From Candidatus Baldrarchaeota archaeon (GTDB lineage Archaea > Asgardarchaeota > Baldrarchaeia > Baldrarchaeales > DXJG01), in assembly GCA_019056805.1 (NCBI GenBank), contig DXJG01000009.1, positions 156,015 to 188,014 on the forward strand: a stretch of 32,000 bases of DNA. Reading direction: 5' to 3'. Positions 1-23,292 of the stretch are shown piece after piece. Every line of letters starts with the position of its first letter. The stretch's first letter is position 1. The notes beneath the pieces are model-generated. The model did no database searches and was not told the DNA's origin. It was given only the letters and a program-made list of their open reading frames with translations. The translations under genes were made by a program, and so were the position numbers.

Positions 1-506
1 GTTTTAACCAGGCTATAATCATTAAAAACATCCGTTAAAGTCCTTTCAATTACTGGATAATTAAAAAACCGGGAACGTCTAACGAAAATTAAAGTTCTTT
101 TGACGTAATCAAATTTACGAGCAAATTTTCCCAACTTAACATAACCATACTTTATCTCAAAAGAAAGTTTTCTAAATTTCGCTTTCAAGGTAGCTTGTTC
201 TTCTGCAAAATCAACTACCTCGGTAGAGCCACATTTGGAACAAGTCTTCACATACTTGGTAACAAAAACGACTTTCTTACTCTTACAGTCTTCACAAGAA
301 TAATTGGATAAATCCTTATTTCTCCCTTTTCCAGTCTTAAGCTCTTTAACATTCTTTGACCCGCAGGTCAAGCAAATTGGAAACTTTTCTATTTTGACCG
401 ACACGCAATTACGACATAACCCTGCTCCACACGTCCTACATATCCACTCAACTTCCTTCAATCCACACTTATGGCAGATTTCTCTCTCTGTATAAAAGTT
501 TTCCAA
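1..506 (-). CDS. Multi-zinc-finger protein (B-box-like N-terminus plus zinc ribbons), 3'-truncated by window edge; not in ORF track
   Basis: Manual translation from TTG at 506 (GGGAG RBS upstream), open for 168 codons to the edge: MENFYTEREICHKCGLKEVEWICRTCGAGLCRNCVSVKIEKFPICLTCGSK...SCEDCKSK...TCSKCGSTEVVDFAEEQATLKAKFRKL...; six CxxC pairs. Confidence 0.8.
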   Translation of the reverse strand, partial: MENFYTEREICHKCGLKEVEWICRTCGAGLCRNCVSVKIEKFPICLTCGSKNVKELKTGKGRNKDLSNYSCEDCKSKKVVFVTKYVKTCSKCGSTEVVDFAEEQATLKAKFRKLSFEIKYGYVKLGKFARKFDYVKRTLIFVRRSRFFNYPVIERTLTDVFNDYSLVK

Positions 507-12908: not shown

Positions 12909-13349
12909 GTGAGTAATTTGCAAGAAAAAACTAGAAGAACTTCGCCGAATAAAAAAACAATCAATCTTGAAGTTGAGGCCATAAAAACTCCAGCAGGCCT
13001 CGTACCCACTGTAAAAAGTGTGGAGAATATCGTCACTGGTCTTAACGTAATCAGTGAAGACATAGCCGATGTTCGCGACACGTTGCTCGAAAGAGTGTTA
13101 AATGTTGAAAAAGATGTTATTAGCATTAGAAAACTACTTGCAGAACAAATCGTAGCGTTAGAAGCAACAAAAGAAACAATAAAAACATTATCTTCGAAAG
13201 TTACTGATGTAATTGAACAGTTTACCGAAAAATGGCGAGAGATGGAAGAAACCATAATGAGCATAGATGTAACCCTCAGAGAGATTCAAGAAAGATTAGA
13301 AGAAATAACTATTAAAATGGAGGAAGAAGAAAAAACCATAGAATATTAA
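12909..13349 (+). CDS. Uncharacterised coiled-coil protein
   Basis: 146 aa; heptad-like helical pattern from about residue 38 to the end; GGTGA at start; sits between the Ub and ESCRT operons. Confidence 0.7.
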   Translation: MSNLQEKTRRTSPNKKTINLEVEAIKTPAGLVPTVKSVENIVTGLNVISEDIADVRDTLLERVLNVEKDVISIRKLLAEQIVALEATKETIKTLSSKVTDVIEQFTEKWREMEETIMSIDVTLREIQERLEEITIKMEEEEKTIEY

Positions 13350-13472: not shown

Positions 13473-14204
13473 TTGGATGTTAACTTTGACTATGTACTAG
13501 CTCGTGAAGCTCAATTAATGTTTAAAAGAGCTCCCGGATTTGAACCTATTAACGGAGACTTAAAGCGATGGAAAGGCAAAGTTCGAGGGGGAGACAACAA
13601 CTGGATTGAAGTTGAAATAGTAATTCCAGAAACTTTTCCAAATGAACCTCCAATAGTTAAGGTTTTAACTCCAGTAGAACATTCATACGTTGATTCTTCA
13701 ACTGGTCGAGTAAACCTACGTATTCTATCAGAATGGCGCCCAGAATACCACGTGTATCAAGTCGTAAATTCTTTAAAAGGCCTCTTCGTCAGAATACCTC
13801 CGAAAATAGTTAAAACTGCACCTCCCGTTACTCCACCTAGCGAAGATGTTGAACTATTAAGACAACGAATCCGACATTTAGAAGATCAAGTTAGACAACT
13901 ACAGAGAATGCTACATGAAAAAGATGAAGAAATAGCACGTCTCCGAGGACTCATAGCCGTTCACAATGTTCCTGAAAAAGAAACAGAAGTTAAAACCATA
14001 CTTCTCCCAAGCGACGAAAAAGAACGTAAAACTCTTGAACTAGAAAGCGAAAAAATAGCTGTCGAAGATCTAATAAAGAGTTTAAATGAGAAATTTGAAT
14101 CCGGCGACATACAACCTTCAGATTACTATAAACTATACAAAAGATACAGAAAAGAACTCTATCTAATCAATAAGAAACTCGAGGAACTCCGCAAGGGGGA
14201 ATAA
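13473..14204 (+). CDS. vps23: ESCRT-I Vps23/TSG101-like protein (UEV, Pro-rich linker, coiled coil, steadiness box)
   Basis: UBC-like N-terminus with the catalytic Cys replaced (HSYVDSSTGRVNLRIL..W); PPKIVKTAPPVTPP linker; coiled coil; C-terminal AVEDLIKSLNEKFESGDIQPSDYYK..KRYRKELY. Confidence 0.85.
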   Translation: MDVNFDYVLAREAQLMFKRAPGFEPINGDLKRWKGKVRGGDNNWIEVEIVIPETFPNEPPIVKVLTPVEHSYVDSSTGRVNLRILSEWRPEYHVYQVVNSLKGLFVRIPPKIVKTAPPVTPPSEDVELLRQRIRHLEDQVRQLQRMLHEKDEEIARLRGLIAVHNVPEKETEVKTILLPSDEKERKTLELESEKIAVEDLIKSLNEKFESGDIQPSDYYKLYKRYRKELYLINKKLEELRKGE

Positions 14205-14824: not shown

Positions 14825-15112
14825 ATGAATGTTGCCGTAGAATTGACAGAACGATTAATCAAACTCATAGATATGTTAGAACTCCGGTTAAACATAGAAT
14901 ATGTTTTAGAAGAATTGGATATGGTTTTATATTTTTCCAAAGCCTTTTTAGGCCTAAACCACAAAGTTACTAAAGAGGCAGAAGAATGGTATAATTTCCT
15001 CTGGGAAAAATACAATAAAAACCCAGGAGCAGTCATTAGTGAAGAGGATTCGAAAAAACTTGTTATGAAAGCTAAAGTTTGGTTTAATATTGTGAAAAGA
15101 ACCTTATGTTAG
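14825..15112 (+). CDS. Stand-alone Vps28 C-terminal-domain-like protein
   Basis: 95 aa; aligns by eye over its full length to the C-terminal half of the adjacent Vps28 (A.E...LI..ID, AF.GL, V.K...W...L, P..V....KKL...A..W.N). Confidence 0.65.
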   Translation: MNVAVELTERLIKLIDMLELRLNIEYVLEELDMVLYFSKAFLGLNHKVTKEAEEWYNFLWEKYNKNPGAVISEEDSKKLVMKAKVWFNIVKRTLC

Positions 15113-15121
15113 GTGAATAAT

Positions 15122-15862
15122 TTGGGATTACATGAAATAGAAAAGCAAGTTAAAATGAAATCCGCTTTCCAAAGAAAAAGAGTAGAATTAATGATGGAAG
15201 AATTAAAAGGGATGTTAAATACAGTAAAAGAACTGAGGGAAAAAGTAGAAGAATTCGAAAAAGAATATGAAGACCTAATAATGGAATTACCTGAATATCA
15301 AAGAAAGCTAGATGCAATTAAAGCTGAAGTTGGGCTCCCTACAACAGAAGAATTTGTAATTAAAAAGAAAAAACCAGGACTACTTGAAAAAATCACAGGT
15401 AAAGGAAAATTCTACGAAGAACTGTCAATGAAAATCTTAGATATTGCTACAAAAGCAGCAAAAGAAACCGGAGGCATCATATCTCTTGCTGATTTAATTC
15501 TAAGGGTTAATAAAATTATTCGTGATATTTCAATTTCTCCAATGGATGTTGTAAAAGCTCTTAAAAAACTTGAAGAGGCCGGGTTAATCTCTGGAGTTAG
15601 AAAACTTAAAAGTGGGGTAAAAATCGTAGAAGTTTATCCCGTGGAACTAACCAAAGATCAAAATGAAATTTTAAGTCTTGCATCTAAAAAGGGCTGGATT
15701 ACCTTAGAGAACGTTATGGTTGAAACAAAATGGAGTAGAGAAAGAGCAATGAGAGCATTAAAAAGCCTCGAAGAAGCAGGGATAGCTATTTACGATCCAA
15801 GTTATACAAAAGGATCTAGATGGTACTTCCCTGGGTTCGTTGGAGAGAAAAAGACAAAATAA
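15122..15862 (+). CDS. ESCRT-II Vps22/Vps36 (EAP30)-like protein
   Basis: N-terminal helical LGLHEI...EEFEKEYEDLI...PEY...I.AEVG; FYEELSMKI...GGIISL; two C-terminal winged helices; probable TTG start at 15122 after AGGTGA (ORF track GTG 15113). Confidence 0.85.
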   Translation: MGLHEIEKQVKMKSAFQRKRVELMMEELKGMLNTVKELREKVEEFEKEYEDLIMELPEYQRKLDAIKAEVGLPTTEEFVIKKKKPGLLEKITGKGKFYEELSMKILDIATKAAKETGGIISLADLILRVNKIIRDISISPMDVVKALKKLEEAGLISGVRKLKSGVKIVEVYPVELTKDQNEILSLASKKGWITLENVMVETKWSRERAMRALKSLEEAGIAIYDPSYTKGSRWYFPGFVGEKKTK

Positions 15863-16488: not shown

Positions 16489-17787
16489 ATGGTTCAAATG
16501 TCTTTAGAAAGATTGTTTACCAAAGAGTTTGAAAATACTATTAGAAGAGTCTTAAAAGAGATCAAAGAAAAACATGAAACGTTAGCAGAAGTAAGGCTTA
16601 AAAAAGATATTAAAATTATTGAAGATAAACTTTTGACAAGCTTTAAACCTTTTCCAAAAGATGTGGTTTTTGATGAAGATTTTCTTGTAGGAGCGATTGA
16701 TGGTAGCGGAGTTTCCCCACTACTAAGATACGATGATATCATGATACATTTAGTTACAGCTTATCTCTCTGTTCATACTACTGGAACAAAAATAAACTCC
16801 CCAATGAAAAAAGTTGAAGTTACAGGTTATCCACCCATACCCGATGGCGGTAGACTAATCGAAGCATTCTGGTTCTCCATGGACGAAGGTCAAATGTGGA
16901 ATTACCTAGAGAAATTTATTAATCGTACCTATATGATAGACAACCTAGATACGCTGCTCTATCCCTATTTTTCCGACATATCTGGGCGCAAAATCGAAAG
17001 CATCAATGACATCATTGAACTATTAGGCCCTAGATACAGAAACATTACCGGGATCAAAGATCTCATAATTTTGCCTCCTGCAACATCCATAAGAATAATA
17101 CACGACCTCCTTAGGGAGATAACCGAACTCTCTCTAGCAAAAAGAGTTTTAAAATCAAGTTTGTCGATCAAATATTTACTCTTAGACACTACAATGACCC
17201 TTCTCATACCTAAAGGCATAGTTCATCCAAATCTTATTACAGATTACATGCTTAGAGATGTCGTATATGAAGCTAGGAAAAAGAACACCATTGTTATAGC
17301 AATAGCAAAATCCCACACAATTCCATGCACTAACGCCATAGCTAAAATAGCAGAACAAAAATTCGGAAAAAATGCTCACTGGTTCTGTAGACTACCCGGA
17401 GATGAGGATCCAGAAGGGAAGCTAAAAATCTTAGAGGGAAGAAGATACATCCCACCCCGAGGAGCTGTCACCTACATATTTCGCTTCTCATATACAATGC
17501 CTGTCTTCAGACTAGATCTAGATCGTAAGTGGTGGGAGAAAAACGTCTATAGTGACGATTTAAAAGAAATGAAAGAAAACGAAATAACGCTATTTAGAGA
17601 ACTAGATTTCATGAGCCATGATGCACGATGGTACGGATACCCAATGCCTCTTTCCTACGCTCACGACGGATGCACCATCAAAGACGTCGAAGGAATGCTT
17701 TTAATAGAACAAGCCATCAGCATCGCTAAAGAAGAAGGATTTGAAGAAGAGAAGCTAATTACACCAAGAAAACTAATCGGAATATAG
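16489..17787 (+). CDS. nurA: NurA 5'-3' nuclease
   Basis: GAIDGSG, LLDTT, IAKS, GYPMPLSYAHD motifs; upstream of herA-mre11-rad50. Confidence 0.85.
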   Translation: MVQMSLERLFTKEFENTIRRVLKEIKEKHETLAEVRLKKDIKIIEDKLLTSFKPFPKDVVFDEDFLVGAIDGSGVSPLLRYDDIMIHLVTAYLSVHTTGTKINSPMKKVEVTGYPPIPDGGRLIEAFWFSMDEGQMWNYLEKFINRTYMIDNLDTLLYPYFSDISGRKIESINDIIELLGPRYRNITGIKDLIILPPATSIRIIHDLLREITELSLAKRVLKSSLSIKYLLLDTTMTLLIPKGIVHPNLITDYMLRDVVYEARKKNTIVIAIAKSHTIPCTNAIAKIAEQKFGKNAHWFCRLPGDEDPEGKLKILEGRRYIPPRGAVTYIFRFSYTMPVFRLDLDRKWWEKNVYSDDLKEMKENEITLFRELDFMSHDARWYGYPMPLSYAHDGCTIKDVEGMLLIEQAISIAKEEGFEEEKLITPRKLIGI

Positions 17788-18018
17788 ATTACATCCTAAA
17801 CTAGACGGATAAGCTGAAATATAATAAATCAAAATTCGCAAAATTATTTCTCGATATATTTTTCTTCTTCTTTTCAAGGAAGGATTGAAAACTTGAGTTC
17901 ATATGCATAAAGTAAATTATTAAGAGAAATGTATATTGAATAAATGATATAAGCGAATCTAATTTATTGTTATTAAGAGATCAGAAGGAAGCTGGACTAT
18001 AACTTTGGTGGGAAAATA

Positions 18019-19782
18019 ATGGAAGAACCAGAGAATCTTTTTGGTGAAGTGTTTGGTAGGCTTGCTGGGGGGACAACAGAGGAAATTCTTCTAATAGCTG
18101 AAAATAAAGATATTTGTGCTGGTGAACTTTTCTTAATTCCATCAAATCGCGGAGGAAAAGAACGAATTTTTCTTTTTAGGGCATTAGATGCAGAAAATAT
18201 AATGAGAAGAGTTTCGGATCTTTCTCGTCTTGCAGGAACTCTCCTTGTAGAGGGAGATGCTTATTTCGCCAATTTGGATAAAGAAAAACTTCTCGGCATC
18301 TTTGGTAAACTTTTAGGTTATGCTGAGAAAACTGGAAATAAGTGGATATTTAGATTACCAAGAAGATTACCAGAACATTTGGCTATAGTATATAGGCCAA
18401 TTCCTGGAATAACGGACAAAATACTTAGAGAAGTGCTGGATAGTCAAATTAGAGGAGAGCTTTATGTTGGTAATCTTCTAGCTGGAGAAAACGAGTTAAA
18501 TATTCCGGTTTATATTCCGTTAAATTTTTTACCAAGTCATTTAGGTATTTTCGGTACTACAGGAGCTGGAAAATCTAATTTAGTTGAAGTCTTGATCAAA
18601 AGTTGTATTGATGTTAACTTAGAAGCATATAAGAAAGGATTAACTAGCACGTATCGAGTCTCGATGGTAGCTATTGATCCTCATGACGAGTTTGCTTTAG
18701 GTGTAGATAAGCGAGGAATTCAAGACATAATCGACGCCATGGATGATGATGTTAGAAGAAATGTAATCGGCGATTTCTATTATTTAACTCCATATCTTGC
18801 AGCCGCAGCACGCAGAGTTAGACCCTATGCTAGAGCAATAAGAATATTGTGGAGTGAAATAACACCACATGATATTTTAAGCATCAGAGAAGTTACACCT
18901 CAACAAGCAGATTTCCTTATTGCAGCCTATAATAAATGGGGAGATAGATGGTTAAGCGAAATTTTCGAAATTGAAGAAGGCGAAGGAGCCCTAGGACATC
19001 CTAGTATAACTGTAAAAGCTGTTCAGAGAAGACTTAGATTTCTACAGAGATCACCCATATTTATTGAAACAGGAGAATCACTACTCGCAGAAATTATTGA
19101 AGCATTAGAATGCGGAAGAGTTCTAGTTGTTAATACAAGCTTATTAAGCGACTTAGAGCAATTTCTATTTACCACAGTTGTTACAAGAACGTTATTTGAT
19201 TTACGTAGAGCTATAAAATCTTCTACAAACTGGTCTGAGTTTGAAAGAAACGCATACGGAAGACTACCAAAAACATTTATGAATAAATTCAAAGACAAAG
19301 CGAAACGACTTTACATTAAAATGAGAGGAGAAGAAGGACAATTTCTAAAAGACATGAAGGAACTTCCAGTAGTTATGATCACGGTTGAAGAAGCACCCTC
19401 CATACTTAACCCTCAACTCATGAAAGGTGAATCTATATTTAAGGACATAGCTCGTCAAGGAAGAAAATTCCGCATAGGCCTCGTAGTAATTTCTCAACAA
19501 GTAACAGCCATTGACAACACTATCCTAAGCAATATGAATACCGAAATAAATCTCAAACTGGGAAATGAAGAGGAAATAAGAGCAGCCATAAAAAATGCTA
19601 GCATAAATATTAGCGGTTTTGAAAGAGAATTCAAGGTCATGGATAGAGGAGAGGCGATTCTAACCGCCAGTTATAGAGAAATGCCCATTCCTTTACGCAT
19701 ACCTAAGTTTGACGATCTTTTTGAAAAGGAAAAAGAAAAATATAAGTTGAAAGAGGGGATCATTGGAGATAGAGGTTTATAA
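18019..19782 (+). CDS. herA: HerA bipolar helicase/translocase
   Basis: N-terminal HAS barrel; HLGIFGTTGAGKSN, IDPHDEF, VEEA, IARQGRKF.IGL..ISQ motifs. Confidence 0.92.
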   Translation: MEEPENLFGEVFGRLAGGTTEEILLIAENKDICAGELFLIPSNRGGKERIFLFRALDAENIMRRVSDLSRLAGTLLVEGDAYFANLDKEKLLGIFGKLLGYAEKTGNKWIFRLPRRLPEHLAIVYRPIPGITDKILREVLDSQIRGELYVGNLLAGENELNIPVYIPLNFLPSHLGIFGTTGAGKSNLVEVLIKSCIDVNLEAYKKGLTSTYRVSMVAIDPHDEFALGVDKRGIQDIIDAMDDDVRRNVIGDFYYLTPYLAAAARRVRPYARAIRILWSEITPHDILSIREVTPQQADFLIAAYNKWGDRWLSEIFEIEEGEGALGHPSITVKAVQRRLRFLQRSPIFIETGESLLAEIIEALECGRVLVVNTSLLSDLEQFLFTTVVTRTLFDLRRAIKSSTNWSEFERNAYGRLPKTFMNKFKDKAKRLYIKMRGEEGQFLKDMKELPVVMITVEEAPSILNPQLMKGESIFKDIARQGRKFRIGLVVISQQVTAIDNTILSNMNTEINLKLGNEEEIRAAIKNASINISGFEREFKVMDRGEAILTASYREMPIPLRIPKFDDLFEKEKEKYKLKEGIIGDRGL

Positions 19783-19792
19783 TGGTGATTTT

Positions 19793-21175
19793 ATGGTAAC
19801 AATTGCACATATAGCTGATACACATCTTGGTCATCGACCGACAACAGGCGTAAAATTTGAATGGGCAGAGGAGAGAAAAATAAGACTTTTGGAGAATGAC
19901 TTTTATGAGGCCTGGAAAAAAATCTTGAAGGAAATTATAGATAGAAAAGATGAAATCGACTTAGTTATACATGCAGGAGACCTTTTTGATTCTCCATGGG
20001 ATAGAAACCCTCATCCACCACCTGAAGCTGCAAGAGAACTTGTTTATAAAACTCTAAAAAAGTTTTTTGAAGAAACAAAAATACCCATGATTATAATTGA
20101 TGGAAATCACGGATCATTCACAGGTTACAAATCCTCAACCCTTGATACATTAAAAATTATATTTGAAGATTATTTATTTGCAGCAACTACATGGGATTTA
20201 AGAGCAGCTCTTTCAAATCAAATCCCTTTAAAATTTAAAGTTAAAGATGCAAATATCTATACGTTTCCCTACATAAACCCCGAGATCTTATATAAGTCTC
20301 AAGCTATAGAGTTATTTAACGCCTGGATTGTAAATGTTCAAAAACCGGAAATAGGTGCAGGGCCAAATATTGCTGTTGCACACGGTATGATTATTGATAA
20401 CACGTTGAATAAGAGAATTTTGGAACTTAATTACGATTACATAGCTCTAGGACATAATCATAAGATGGGGAAGCTAAGTGAAAATGCATGGTATGCTGGA
20501 AGTACTGAGAAATGGAGATTTGATGAATTTGAAGACGAAAAGGGCTTTCTCATAGTCCAGGTTGAAGAGGGAGAAAAACCATCAGTACAAAAAATACCTA
20601 TAAAATCTTCAAGACCTATGCTTGTCGAAAAAATCAAAATAGATACTAGTGACACACCTGACACTATTAGAAATATTGTTCTATCTAAAGTATCTGAACA
20701 TGGACTTCAAACAGGCTGGGATCCCCGTACAGCTGCTAGAGTTAAAGTTGTTTTTGAAGGAAGAACCTTGATGTCTTCTCTTTGGAAAATTAATTCAATG
20801 CTGGAATATCTAAGAAAACAGTTTTTTGAAGACAATAAATTTAATATTGCCCAATTTATCTGGGATTGGAAAAGCGTTGAGAAAACATGGGTTGCCCCAG
20901 CATATGCGCCAGAGGAGAGGGAATGTTTAATAGATGACCCTGAAAAAGATTTTGAAGAATTTCTAAAGTCACAAACAATTGAAGAGGGATACGATACCAG
21001 CTTACTTGTTAAATTAGCAGCCGAGGCAATCAAACAAGCCCTAGGCAAACCAACCGAGCACGAAATACGCAAAGAAATCCAAACAAAACCGAAACAACCA
21101 TCACCTAGAAAAGAAGAAAAAAGGGTAAAACCTAGAAAAAGAGGAACCTTAGATGCATTCTTTGGGGGAGAATAG
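19793..21175 (+). CDS. mre11: Mre11 nuclease
   Basis: HIADTHLG, HAGDLFD, DGNHG, AHG, ALGHNH, YAGS phosphoesterase motifs; likely ATG at 19793 after GGTGA. Confidence 0.93.
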   Translation: MVTIAHIADTHLGHRPTTGVKFEWAEERKIRLLENDFYEAWKKILKEIIDRKDEIDLVIHAGDLFDSPWDRNPHPPPEAARELVYKTLKKFFEETKIPMIIIDGNHGSFTGYKSSTLDTLKIIFEDYLFAATTWDLRAALSNQIPLKFKVKDANIYTFPYINPEILYKSQAIELFNAWIVNVQKPEIGAGPNIAVAHGMIIDNTLNKRILELNYDYIALGHNHKMGKLSENAWYAGSTEKWRFDEFEDEKGFLIVQVEEGEKPSVQKIPIKSSRPMLVEKIKIDTSDTPDTIRNIVLSKVSEHGLQTGWDPRTAARVKVVFEGRTLMSSLWKINSMLEYLRKQFFEDNKFNIAQFIWDWKSVEKTWVAPAYAPEERECLIDDPEKDFEEFLKSQTIEEGYDTSLLVKLAAEAIKQALGKPTEHEIRKEIQTKPKQPSPRKEEKRVKPRKRGTLDAFFGGE

Positions 21176-21177
21176 GG

Positions 21178-23292
21178 GTGAGAATCCGTAGAATCCAATT
21201 AATAAATTTTAAACCTTACAAAAAGTTAATTTTACCAAATGAAAAAGACATTTTCCCACGAGGATTAATTTTAATAGAAGGACCTAACTCTACCGGCAAA
21301 ACATCTATCTTAGACTCAATTATATGGGCTCTGTGGGGACCTACTGCTATAGGCACAAGAAATGAAGATTTAATTAAATTCGGTGAAAGATTTTGTCGAG
21401 CTATAGTTGAATTCGAAGTCGATGGTAAAAAATATCTAATAGACAGATCCTATGACAGAAGTTCAGGCATGAAAGTAGTTCTGTACCAATATGATGAAAA
21501 TAAAGGTAAGTTTATCGATATAGCTTCTAAATCTGGAGAAGTTAGTAAGAAAATAGAAGAAATACTTCAAATAGACTATAAACAAGCCCTTAGTACCGTT
21601 ATGGTACGTCAAGGCGAAGTTAATGAGCTAGCGGTTGCTTCTCCCGCAAGTCTACGAGAATTAATTTCGAAAGTCTATAGCTTAGATTTATTAGAAAAGG
21701 TAAACGACGTCCTGAAAAAGGAGGAGAATCTTTTAAAAGAAAAACTCGATGAACTGCAAAGAAAATTTATTCCCATCGAAAGAATTGAAAGCCAACTCAC
21801 CGAAAAAAACAATGAGTTAAAAAGCAAAAAATCACAGTTAAAAGAGAAACAAAAAAAACTTAAAGAGCTAAAAAGTAAAATAAAACAGCTTCCTAGCCCC
21901 GATCTTATCAGAAAAATAGAATCTGCTATGATTCGCATTAATAGTTTTCGAGAAGACTTGTTAAACATAAATAAGAATATCGAAGAATTTGCAAGAAACA
22001 TAGGTATAACTCGTGAGGTTTCAATAAAAACAATAGAGGAGGAAATCAATAAAAGAGATCAACTACTTCAAGAGAAGTTAAAAGAAATCAATGTTCTTGA
22101 AAATGAACTCCGCAATTTAAGTGAGAAAATCGGTGGACTACAAGGAGTAAACAAGGAATTAGAAGATAAAATTATCAGATTACAAAAAGCAGAGAAACTC
22201 GAGGAAGGAGAACTTGAATATCGTTGCCCAACATGTGGCACGACTCTTTCCAAAGAAAAAATGGAAGACATTGTTAATCATTATAGAAAAGAAATAGAGA
22301 ACAACAAACTTACCATTAAAGAACTAATTAAACAGAGAAATAGCCTAAAGGAAAAAGGAGAAGAAAAACGCAGAGAAAAAGAAAAAATACTAGTTGAAAA
22401 GAGTAACCTAACATCGCTGAAGAAGAGAATAGAAGAACTAGAAGAAAAAAGAAGAAATTTGGCAAATCTAGAAAACCAGTTTAAAGAGATGTTGAGCGAA
22501 ACAGGATATAGTAGTGTTGAAGACATTCTTACAAAATTCAATTTCAAAAGTTTAAATGAGCTTTACCAACACGTCACTGACCTCAGTGAAAATATTACAA
22601 GAATAGAGGTAGAAATTGGGAATTTCATTGAAGCCATTGACAGAATAGAGAACGAAATAACAAAACTACAACAAGAAAAAGAAGAAATGTTAAAATTAGA
22701 AAAAGAAATCAAAGAAACCAAAAAAGTACTGCAACATATTACATATCTTAGAAAAGTTTTAATGAAAAACTTCCTTTCTCAATGGGTTGTACAAAAAAGA
22801 CTTTTAGGAACTATAAAGCATACCGCAGCGAGCTATCTTCTAAGATTTACCTGTGGACAATACTCTAATGTCGATTTAGTCCCAACTAAAGCAACTGGTG
22901 AGAGAGGGTCAGGAATACTATTAACAGTTTTAGATGAAAGCGATGGAATAGTTAAAAATAAGGACATGTTAAGCTTCGGCGACAGAACCGCAGTAGGTCT
23001 AGCTTTAAGACTTGGAATCTCAAAAACAATGTCTAGAATTAAACCCCTAAAAGAAAGTACACAAAAAACACCAAGAATCCGCTGTGTACTTTTAGATGAA
23101 CCATTAGGAGGACTAGATTTTTCGAGAAGAAAAGAAGTTATCGATCAATTGGTTGAAGACGAAGGGTTTGAACAAATCTTCCTCATAACTCATATGGAAA
23201 TCGAGAGAAAAACAGAAATCCCCAGAGTTGTTGTCAGAAAAGAGGGTAACATAAGTGTTGCAGAATTCGTCGCTTCAAAACAAGAGCTATAA
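21178..23292 (+). CDS. rad50: Rad50 ATPase
   Basis: Walker A GPNSTGKT, Q-loop VRQGE, coiled coils, central Zn hook CPTC, signature LSFGD, LLDEP, ITH. Confidence 0.93.
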   Translation: MRIRRIQLINFKPYKKLILPNEKDIFPRGLILIEGPNSTGKTSILDSIIWALWGPTAIGTRNEDLIKFGERFCRAIVEFEVDGKKYLIDRSYDRSSGMKVVLYQYDENKGKFIDIASKSGEVSKKIEEILQIDYKQALSTVMVRQGEVNELAVASPASLRELISKVYSLDLLEKVNDVLKKEENLLKEKLDELQRKFIPIERIESQLTEKNNELKSKKSQLKEKQKKLKELKSKIKQLPSPDLIRKIESAMIRINSFREDLLNINKNIEEFARNIGITREVSIKTIEEEINKRDQLLQEKLKEINVLENELRNLSEKIGGLQGVNKELEDKIIRLQKAEKLEEGELEYRCPTCGTTLSKEKMEDIVNHYRKEIENNKLTIKELIKQRNSLKEKGEEKRREKEKILVEKSNLTSLKKRIEELEEKRRNLANLENQFKEMLSETGYSSVEDILTKFNFKSLNELYQHVTDLSENITRIEVEIGNFIEAIDRIENEITKLQQEKEEMLKLEKEIKETKKVLQHITYLRKVLMKNFLSQWVVQKRLLGTIKHTAASYLLRFTCGQYSNVDLVPTKATGERGSGILLTVLDESDGIVKNKDMLSFGDRTAVGLALRLGISKTMSRIKPLKESTQKTPRIRCVLLDEPLGGLDFSRRKEVIDQLVEDEGFEQIFLITHMEIERKTEIPRVVVRKEGNISVAEFVASKQEL

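Follow-up and report, generated by a model that had tools for sequence, protein, structure and literature searches.

A free-standing homolog of the Vps28 C-terminal domain in the ESCRT operon of a Baldrarchaeota archaeon, and its retention among Asgard archaea

Introduction

What is the small open reading frame that separates vps28 from vps22 in the ESCRT operon of a Candidatus Baldrarchaeota archaeon, and what might its product do there? The window analysed in this study is a stretch of 32,000 nucleotides from contig DXJG01000009.1 of assembly GCA_019056805.1, and the frame in question encodes 95 amino acids. An initial annotation, made from the DNA alone, read it as a stand-alone duplicate of the C-terminal domain (CTD) of the adjacent Vps28. 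The CTD of eukaryotic Vps28 contacts ESCRT-II (PMC10936438; PMC9192718), and for Odinarchaeota it has been noted that ESCRT-I is probably linked to ESCRT-II by factors yet to be determined (Hatano et al. 2022; PMC10936438; PMC9192718). Here we ask whether the small gene is real, whether it is indeed related to Vps28, how old and how widespread it is, and which of several possible roles its features favour.

Results

The 95-aa gene lies among co-directional ESCRT genes (Table 1). Only 10 nt separate the stop codon of vps28 from its start, and its own TAG is followed at once by the GTG with which the vps22 reading frame begins. The neighbours named in the initial annotation, Vps28 and Vps22/36, are both recognized by Pfam, and the Vps28 of this operon is the single PF03997 match in the genome. 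Upstream of the ESCRT genes, on the opposite strand, Pfam identifies genes for a ThiF-type E1, an E2, ubiquitin and a RING protein, so that the locus represents the ubiquitin and ESCRT-I/II cluster typical of Asgard archaea. Just before the window the same contig encodes Vps25, Vps4, two Snf7-family proteins and a 509-aa bPH-containing protein.

Table 1. Position and assignment of the ESCRT genes and associated features in the window
Feature	Coordinates	Strand	Details
Stand-alone Vps28 C-terminal-domain paralog	14825..15112	+	ATG start, TAG stop, 95 aa
Helices of the 95-aa protein (residues)	3-19, 24-42, 47-65, 73-94		Four-helix bundle (AlphaFold2)
Full-length Vps28, 202 aa	14206..14814	+	Pfam VPS28 PF03997, E 1.5e-13, profile positions 2-176; comprises a steadiness-box half and, at about residues 103-202, the embedded C-terminal domain
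UEV-Vps23: E2-variant domain, coiled coil, Vps23 core	13473..14204	+	Pfam UQ_con 4e-13, UEV 1.3e-6, Vps23_core 1.4e-4
Vps22-type ESCRT-II subunit, EAP30 family	15113..15862	+	Pfam EAP30 (Vps22/36), E 1.5e-27
146-aa coiled-coil protein, upstream of UEV-vps23	12909..13349	+	Pfam, weak matches only

Two further features of the window may be recorded here. The weak Pfam matches of the 146-aa coiled-coil protein include Mod_r/Vps37, at an E-value of 0.011 and below the cut-off; its homologs lie just upstream of the ESCRT operon in three of our families (f1, f4, f12) and away from it, elsewhere in the genome, in four (f3, f8, f13, f18). Judged from its sequence it may be an accessory stalk protein of ESCRT-I or a subunit like Vps37, though whether it belongs to the unit is uncertain. 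Asgard archaea have been reported to be without Vps37. Beyond the ESCRT cluster, four large co-directional ORFs of 432, 587, 470 and 704 aa (16489-23292, forward strand) resemble a NurA-HerA-Mre11-Rad50 DNA-repair operon by size and order alone.

The 95-aa ORF is a genuine protein-coding gene. Its closest homologs, two relatives recovered by a word-based search, are 93% and 80% identical and equal in length, the second being labelled Baldrarchaeia, while an exhaustive single-sequence search of 1.8 billion representative proteins returned 8 relatives, with further ones at 60, 44, 38 and about 30% identity, all of 94-103 aa. Against three same-genus orthologs the ratio dN/dS is 0.06-0.10 (Nei-Gojobori), and it is 0.04 between two of those orthologs; by the same method vps28 gives 0.08-0.09, and vps22 and UEV-vps23 each give 0.04. 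The gene is thus under purifying selection, as its neighbours are.

Similarity to the second half of the adjacent Vps28, as initially proposed, is upheld by two kinds of comparison. Residues 4-88 of the 95-aa protein align with Vps28 residues 107-192 at 28 identical positions of 89 (31%, with 48% positives) and a BLASTP E-value of 4e-7 for the single comparison. All four of the similarity blocks quoted in the initial annotation recur in this alignment, with the strings of the two proteins having been interchanged there. When a profile of 23 stand-alone sequences was set against one of 16 Vps28 proteins from Asgard archaea, hhalign gave a probability of 91% and an E-value of 9e-7 over 89 columns, mapping to Vps28 residues 107-199. 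The nearest feature neighbours in the ESM Atlas were VPS28 clusters in 30 cases out of 30, with a best score of 0.91. The Pfam VPS28 model, which describes the whole protein, matched neither the ORF itself nor any of the 23 stand-alone family members, and a PDB sequence profile search with the family retrieved designed helical proteins only and no Vps28; the tie to the eukaryotic Vps28 CTD is therefore transitive, by way of Asgard Vps28, and structural. The 95-aa protein begins at helix 1 of the bundle, so that the N-terminal steadiness-box/core half, which anchors Vps28 in the ESCRT-I headpiece, is absent; this absence, together with the failure of the Pfam model, makes the protein a paralog of the Vps28 CTD and not an ortholog of Vps28.

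The predicted structure agrees with this assignment. AlphaFold2, run on the single sequence, gave a four-helix bundle with a mean pLDDT of 95.7. The highest Foldseek TM-scores were to Vps28 CTDs (2j9w 0.84, 2j9v 0.80, 2g3k 0.79), at E-values that are non-significant for so short a helical protein. VIA-align placed the same three structures at Z 14.4 (2j9w_B, rmsd 1.6 over 92 residues), 13.6 (2g3k) and 13.4 (2j9v), the superpositions ranging over rmsd 1.6-1.9 and 91-92 residues. When 48,161 representative chains were searched independently of Foldseek, the yeast Vps28 CTD again ranked first (2j9u_A, Z 13.4). HEPN, which had been named at the outset as the kind of fold that would speak against the assignment, was absent from the top 50 rows of the Foldseek, VIA and representative-chain searches. 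Compared with the eukaryotic domain (PDB 2J9U, 2J9V, 2J9W, 2G3K), the 95-aa protein has a like four-helix bundle and shares the tryptophan of helix 4, but it is only 12-14% identical and has no steadiness-box half attached.

Could the protein instead be an unrelated, generic four-helix bundle, for instance of the HPt (histidine-phosphotransfer) type, that has come to lie in the operon by chance? CheA P1 was the next fold after the Vps28 CTDs in VIA-align (Z 11.8), CheA P1 and HPt bundles together spanned Z 10-11.8, and the failures of the Pfam model and of the PDB profile search could be read in the same way. Since the margin of the Vps28 CTDs over generic bundles is modest (13.4-14.4 as against 11.8), the fold taken by itself would leave the question undecided. 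There is, however, significant sequence homology to archaeal Vps28, Vps28 CTDs came first in every fold search, and synteny is kept across classes; we regard chance residence of a generic bundle as a very remote prospect. An HPt domain in particular was rejected, as helix 2 (24-42) contains no histidine; the sole histidine of the protein is a loop residue, at position 46, and is not conserved in family f5. Taking BLASTP, hhalign, the confident model and the fold searches together, we are close to certain that the 95-aa protein is a free-standing homolog of the Vps28 CTD, encoded, as first proposed, within the ESCRT-I/II operon.

A survey of Asgard loci for the same ORF, suggested in the initial annotation, showed how regularly it occurs. 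We searched 301 Asgard genomes of 30 families with the 95-aa protein and then with the family profile. The profile found exactly one stand-alone copy in each of the 66 genomes of seven families: f1 (3/3), f2 (1/1), f4 (2/2), f5 (29/29), f12 (19/19), f24 (1/1) and f27 (11/11). These orthologs are small open frames of 93-132 aa. Labels taken from identical proteins assign f1 and f2 to Baldrarchaeia, f12 to Hermodarchaeia, and f27 and f5 to Heimdallarchaeota and Heimdallarchaeaceae, those of f4 being inconsistent (Hod/Wukongarchaeota). The profile found no stand-alone copy in any of the remaining 23 families, f7 (0/76) and f9 (0/68) among them; of the families without the gene, f9 is labelled Lokiarchaeota, f8 Jordarchaeia and f21 'Promethearchaeota'. 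Three other, weak profile matches were seen, none of them stand-alone: two in f19, which fall inside a protein of 466 aa, and one in f21, which is interrupted by many stop codons and was for that reason taken as spurious.

The position of the gene is as regular as its copy number. It stands directly after vps28 in every locus examined, with vps22 next in nearly all, giving the order UEV-vps23, vps28, stand-alone gene, vps22; it follows the Vps28-bearing gene in loci L003-L037, L046 and L050, and UEV-vps23 is syntenic in all related loci for which the upstream flank was recovered. In f5 a UEV-Vps23-Vps28 fusion, of a kind known from Heimdallarchaeota (PMC9192718), takes the place of the first two genes of the operon. 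Departures are few: in two f27 loci (L036, L046) an unrelated gene lies between the stand-alone gene and vps22, and in the f24 locus (L037) no vps22 was detected nearby. Where the stand-alone gene is lacking, vps28 abuts vps22 in f8, f14, f15, f18 and f20, and since the same operon occurs without it in many Asgard lineages, the gene is not essential to the ESCRT-I/II link. One f21 genome (G258) has a different gene between vps28 and vps22: it lies on the opposite strand to these (L047:1705-3048, +) and encodes a 447-aa protein, Cys-rich at its N-terminus with zinc-ribbon motifs and ending in a coiled coil, which from its sequence may be of the Zn-ribbon/PH/steadiness-box type.

This constancy next to vps28 would suit a heterodimer in which the free bundle packs on Vps28's own CTD as a composite module, as the gene always follows vps28 immediately and stays with it in those f27 and f24 loci where vps22 has been separated or is undetected nearby. 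We nonetheless hold such a heterodimer to be quite improbable.

The age of the gene was addressed with a maximum-likelihood tree (LG+C20; 39 rows, 102 columns) in which 16 stand-alone domains were placed beside 23 CTDs excised from full-length Vps28 proteins. A single branch with 99/99 support splits the stand-alone from the embedded domains, and on both sides alike the Baldr, Hermod and f4 sequences cluster apart from those of the Heimdall-type families. It follows from this single branch that the stand-alone gene is an old paralog and was not copied from the vps28 beside which it now lies. The initial description of a duplicate of the Vps28 CTD thus holds in so far as the two are homologous paralogs, but not in the sense of a simple copy of the adjacent gene, given this branch and the signature residues described below. 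The family split once from the Vps28-embedded CTD and was then kept right after vps28, nearly always ahead of vps22. As the tree is unrooted, the free domain may either derive from Vps28 or be a relic of the pre-fusion module proposed by Makarova et al. (PMC10936438).

Adjacency to vps28 and 31% identity to its C-terminal half might also be expected of a recent tandem duplicate, or of a decaying vps28 fragment, with no function of its own. The stand-alone copies of seven families nevertheless cluster away from all embedded CTDs, dN/dS lies at 0.04-0.10 and the copy number is one in every genome of those families, and we give a recent or decaying copy practically no credence.

Stand-alone and embedded domains share the helix-4 tryptophan (Trp86/Trp190) and some core leucines, and differ elsewhere. 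Glu29 is invariant in the stand-alone family where Vps28 has a conserved Pro134, the family carries an inserted Lys-Tyr63 relative to Vps28, and the residues Ile115, Leu123, Trp162, Pro171, Arg189 and Phe194 that are conserved in Vps28 are not kept across it. Its surface signature is therefore unlike that of the embedded CTD, which argues for another partner or binding mode and not for plain redundancy. Net charge varies widely among the stand-alone orthologs, from -9.5 to +5.8, and so gives no indication of a single conserved electrostatic interface.

These residues bear on a further alternative, that of a competitive regulator or decoy, in which the free CTD would occupy the Vps28-CTD site on ESCRT-II or on the ESCRT-III subunit Vps20 and thereby damp or time the hand-over from ESCRT-I. 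A protein with the fold of the Vps28 CTD and no tethering half could act in this manner, and like a modulator it is dispensable in many lineages. Against this, the positions most strongly conserved among embedded CTDs (Ile115, Leu123, Pro134, Trp162, Arg189 and Phe194) are not conserved in the free domain, so that an identical binding site is unlikely, and a translationally coupled place between two structural subunits is more in keeping with a stoichiometric subunit than with a regulator. We consider a decoy unlikely, and the diverged signature, as read from the sequences, favours a distinct contact over simple competition.

Discussion

The gene proves to be real and conserved but already known. 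It had been thought undescribed, yet Makarova et al. (2024, mBio, PMC10936438) reported that in some Asgard genomes the Vps28 C-terminal domain has a gene to itself, besides a full vps28. In Table S2 of that work such genes appear under asCOG cog.004115, named 'Vps28 protein, C-terminal region', with for example As_001-p_01332 of Heimdallarchaeota AB_125, where the gene sits between an E2-Vps23 fusion and Vps22 (PMC10936438). The window gene is the same kind of gene in the same position: each is a single domain of about 80-110 aa, found besides a full Vps28 and between a Vps28-bearing gene and vps22, the likeness being one of position and annotation. Heimdallarchaeaceae-labelled orthologs of the window gene were found at E-values of 6e-6 to 3e-4 in the library of 1.8 billion proteins, and those with the UEV-Vps23-Vps28 fusion upstream fall with it in the 99/99 stand-alone group. 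The Baldrarchaeia version keeps more Vps28-like residues (Asp16, Trp55) than the Heimdall versions do.

The ortholog of the window gene from Ca. Heimdallarchaeum aukensis (UJG39579.1, in the cluster of L031:1483-1788) is labelled 'YtzH-like family protein' at NCBI, and all other orthologs that we looked up are 'hypothetical protein'. The YtzH model (Pfam PF14165) gives a weak chance match to 3 of 23 family members, with a best E-value of 1.2e-5, and it is probably from such a match that the label stems.

Vps28-C-type bundles outside canonical Vps28 are also known from the multidomain Asgard proteins of Makarova et al. (2024, Fig. 6B, PMC10936438), which include adaptin-appendage, longin and similar fusions; the window gene, in contrast, encodes a bare domain with no cargo or adaptor module. 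The 466-aa protein of f19 (L054:330-1727, +, in genome G042, with a second copy in G058) is probably one of these multidomain proteins. Its C-terminal bundle (371-461), which contains the helix-4 tryptophan as well as a YSILEEL motif, matches the stand-alone profile (hhalign E 5e-6) and not the Vps28 profile, and its locus is not an ESCRT locus. The AF2 model (pLDDT 85) has beta-rich and alpha/beta N-terminal domains that in Foldseek weakly resemble class-I glutamine-amidotransferase-like and BamC-N-like folds. None of the 8000 candidates scored with the family alignment was a longer, fused form, which is weak evidence. The present analysis adds confirmation for Baldrarchaeia and shows that the stand-alone genes form one old paralog group, that the families possessing the gene retain it strictly, and that its surface signature differs from that of the CTD within Vps28.

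Asgard ESCRT-II is without Vps36 and its NZF zinc finger, the site that the yeast Vps28 CTD binds, so that the eukaryotic contact is not directly transferable to the archaeal complex. A zinc-finger partner was sought in the Zn-ribbon/PH/steadiness-box protein whose gene immediately precedes the window, and this candidate was rejected for want of co-occurrence with the stand-alone gene across families: it is present in f7 (72/76), f9 (64/68) and also f8, f15, f18 and f20, all of which are without the gene, and with that query it was found in none of the 29 genomes of f5, though f5 has the gene.

How, then, might a free Vps28 CTD act? We suggest that the 95-aa protein would be produced along with UEV-Vps23, Vps28 and Vps22, probably at matching levels, and would then work as an untethered accessory subunit at the junction of ESCRT-I and ESCRT-II. 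The surface of its bundle would putatively bind the ESCRT-II subunit Vps22 or, alternatively, a Vps20-type subunit of ESCRT-III or Vps28 itself. Asgard Vps22 self-interacts, and two-hybrid data link Asgard ESCRT-I with Vps22 (PMC10936438; PMC9192718); given the reported self-interaction a second docking site is possible. As a mechanism this accessory role, the most likely of those considered, is tentative and in our judgement falls a little short of an even chance, while the reading taken as a whole, Vps28-C identity joined with an untethered accessory-subunit role at ESCRT-I/II, is one towards which we lean slightly.

A more far-reaching form of the accessory-subunit proposal is that the protein might have served since ancient times as an additional, dedicated subunit of the Asgard ESCRT-I/II supercomplex, one that would predate the split between Heimdall-type and Baldr/Hermod-type lineages, would dock on the second Vps22 copy where ESCRT-II is a homodimer or else directly on ESCRT-III, and would have been lost in Loki-type lineages and in eukaryotes. 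This we regard as speculative and rather doubtful. A conserved free Vps28-C bundle at the ESCRT-I/II junction is in any event an obvious candidate for a bridge or a regulator, and if the ancestral link did comprise two CTDs, the one-CTD link of eukaryotes would be a simplification of it.
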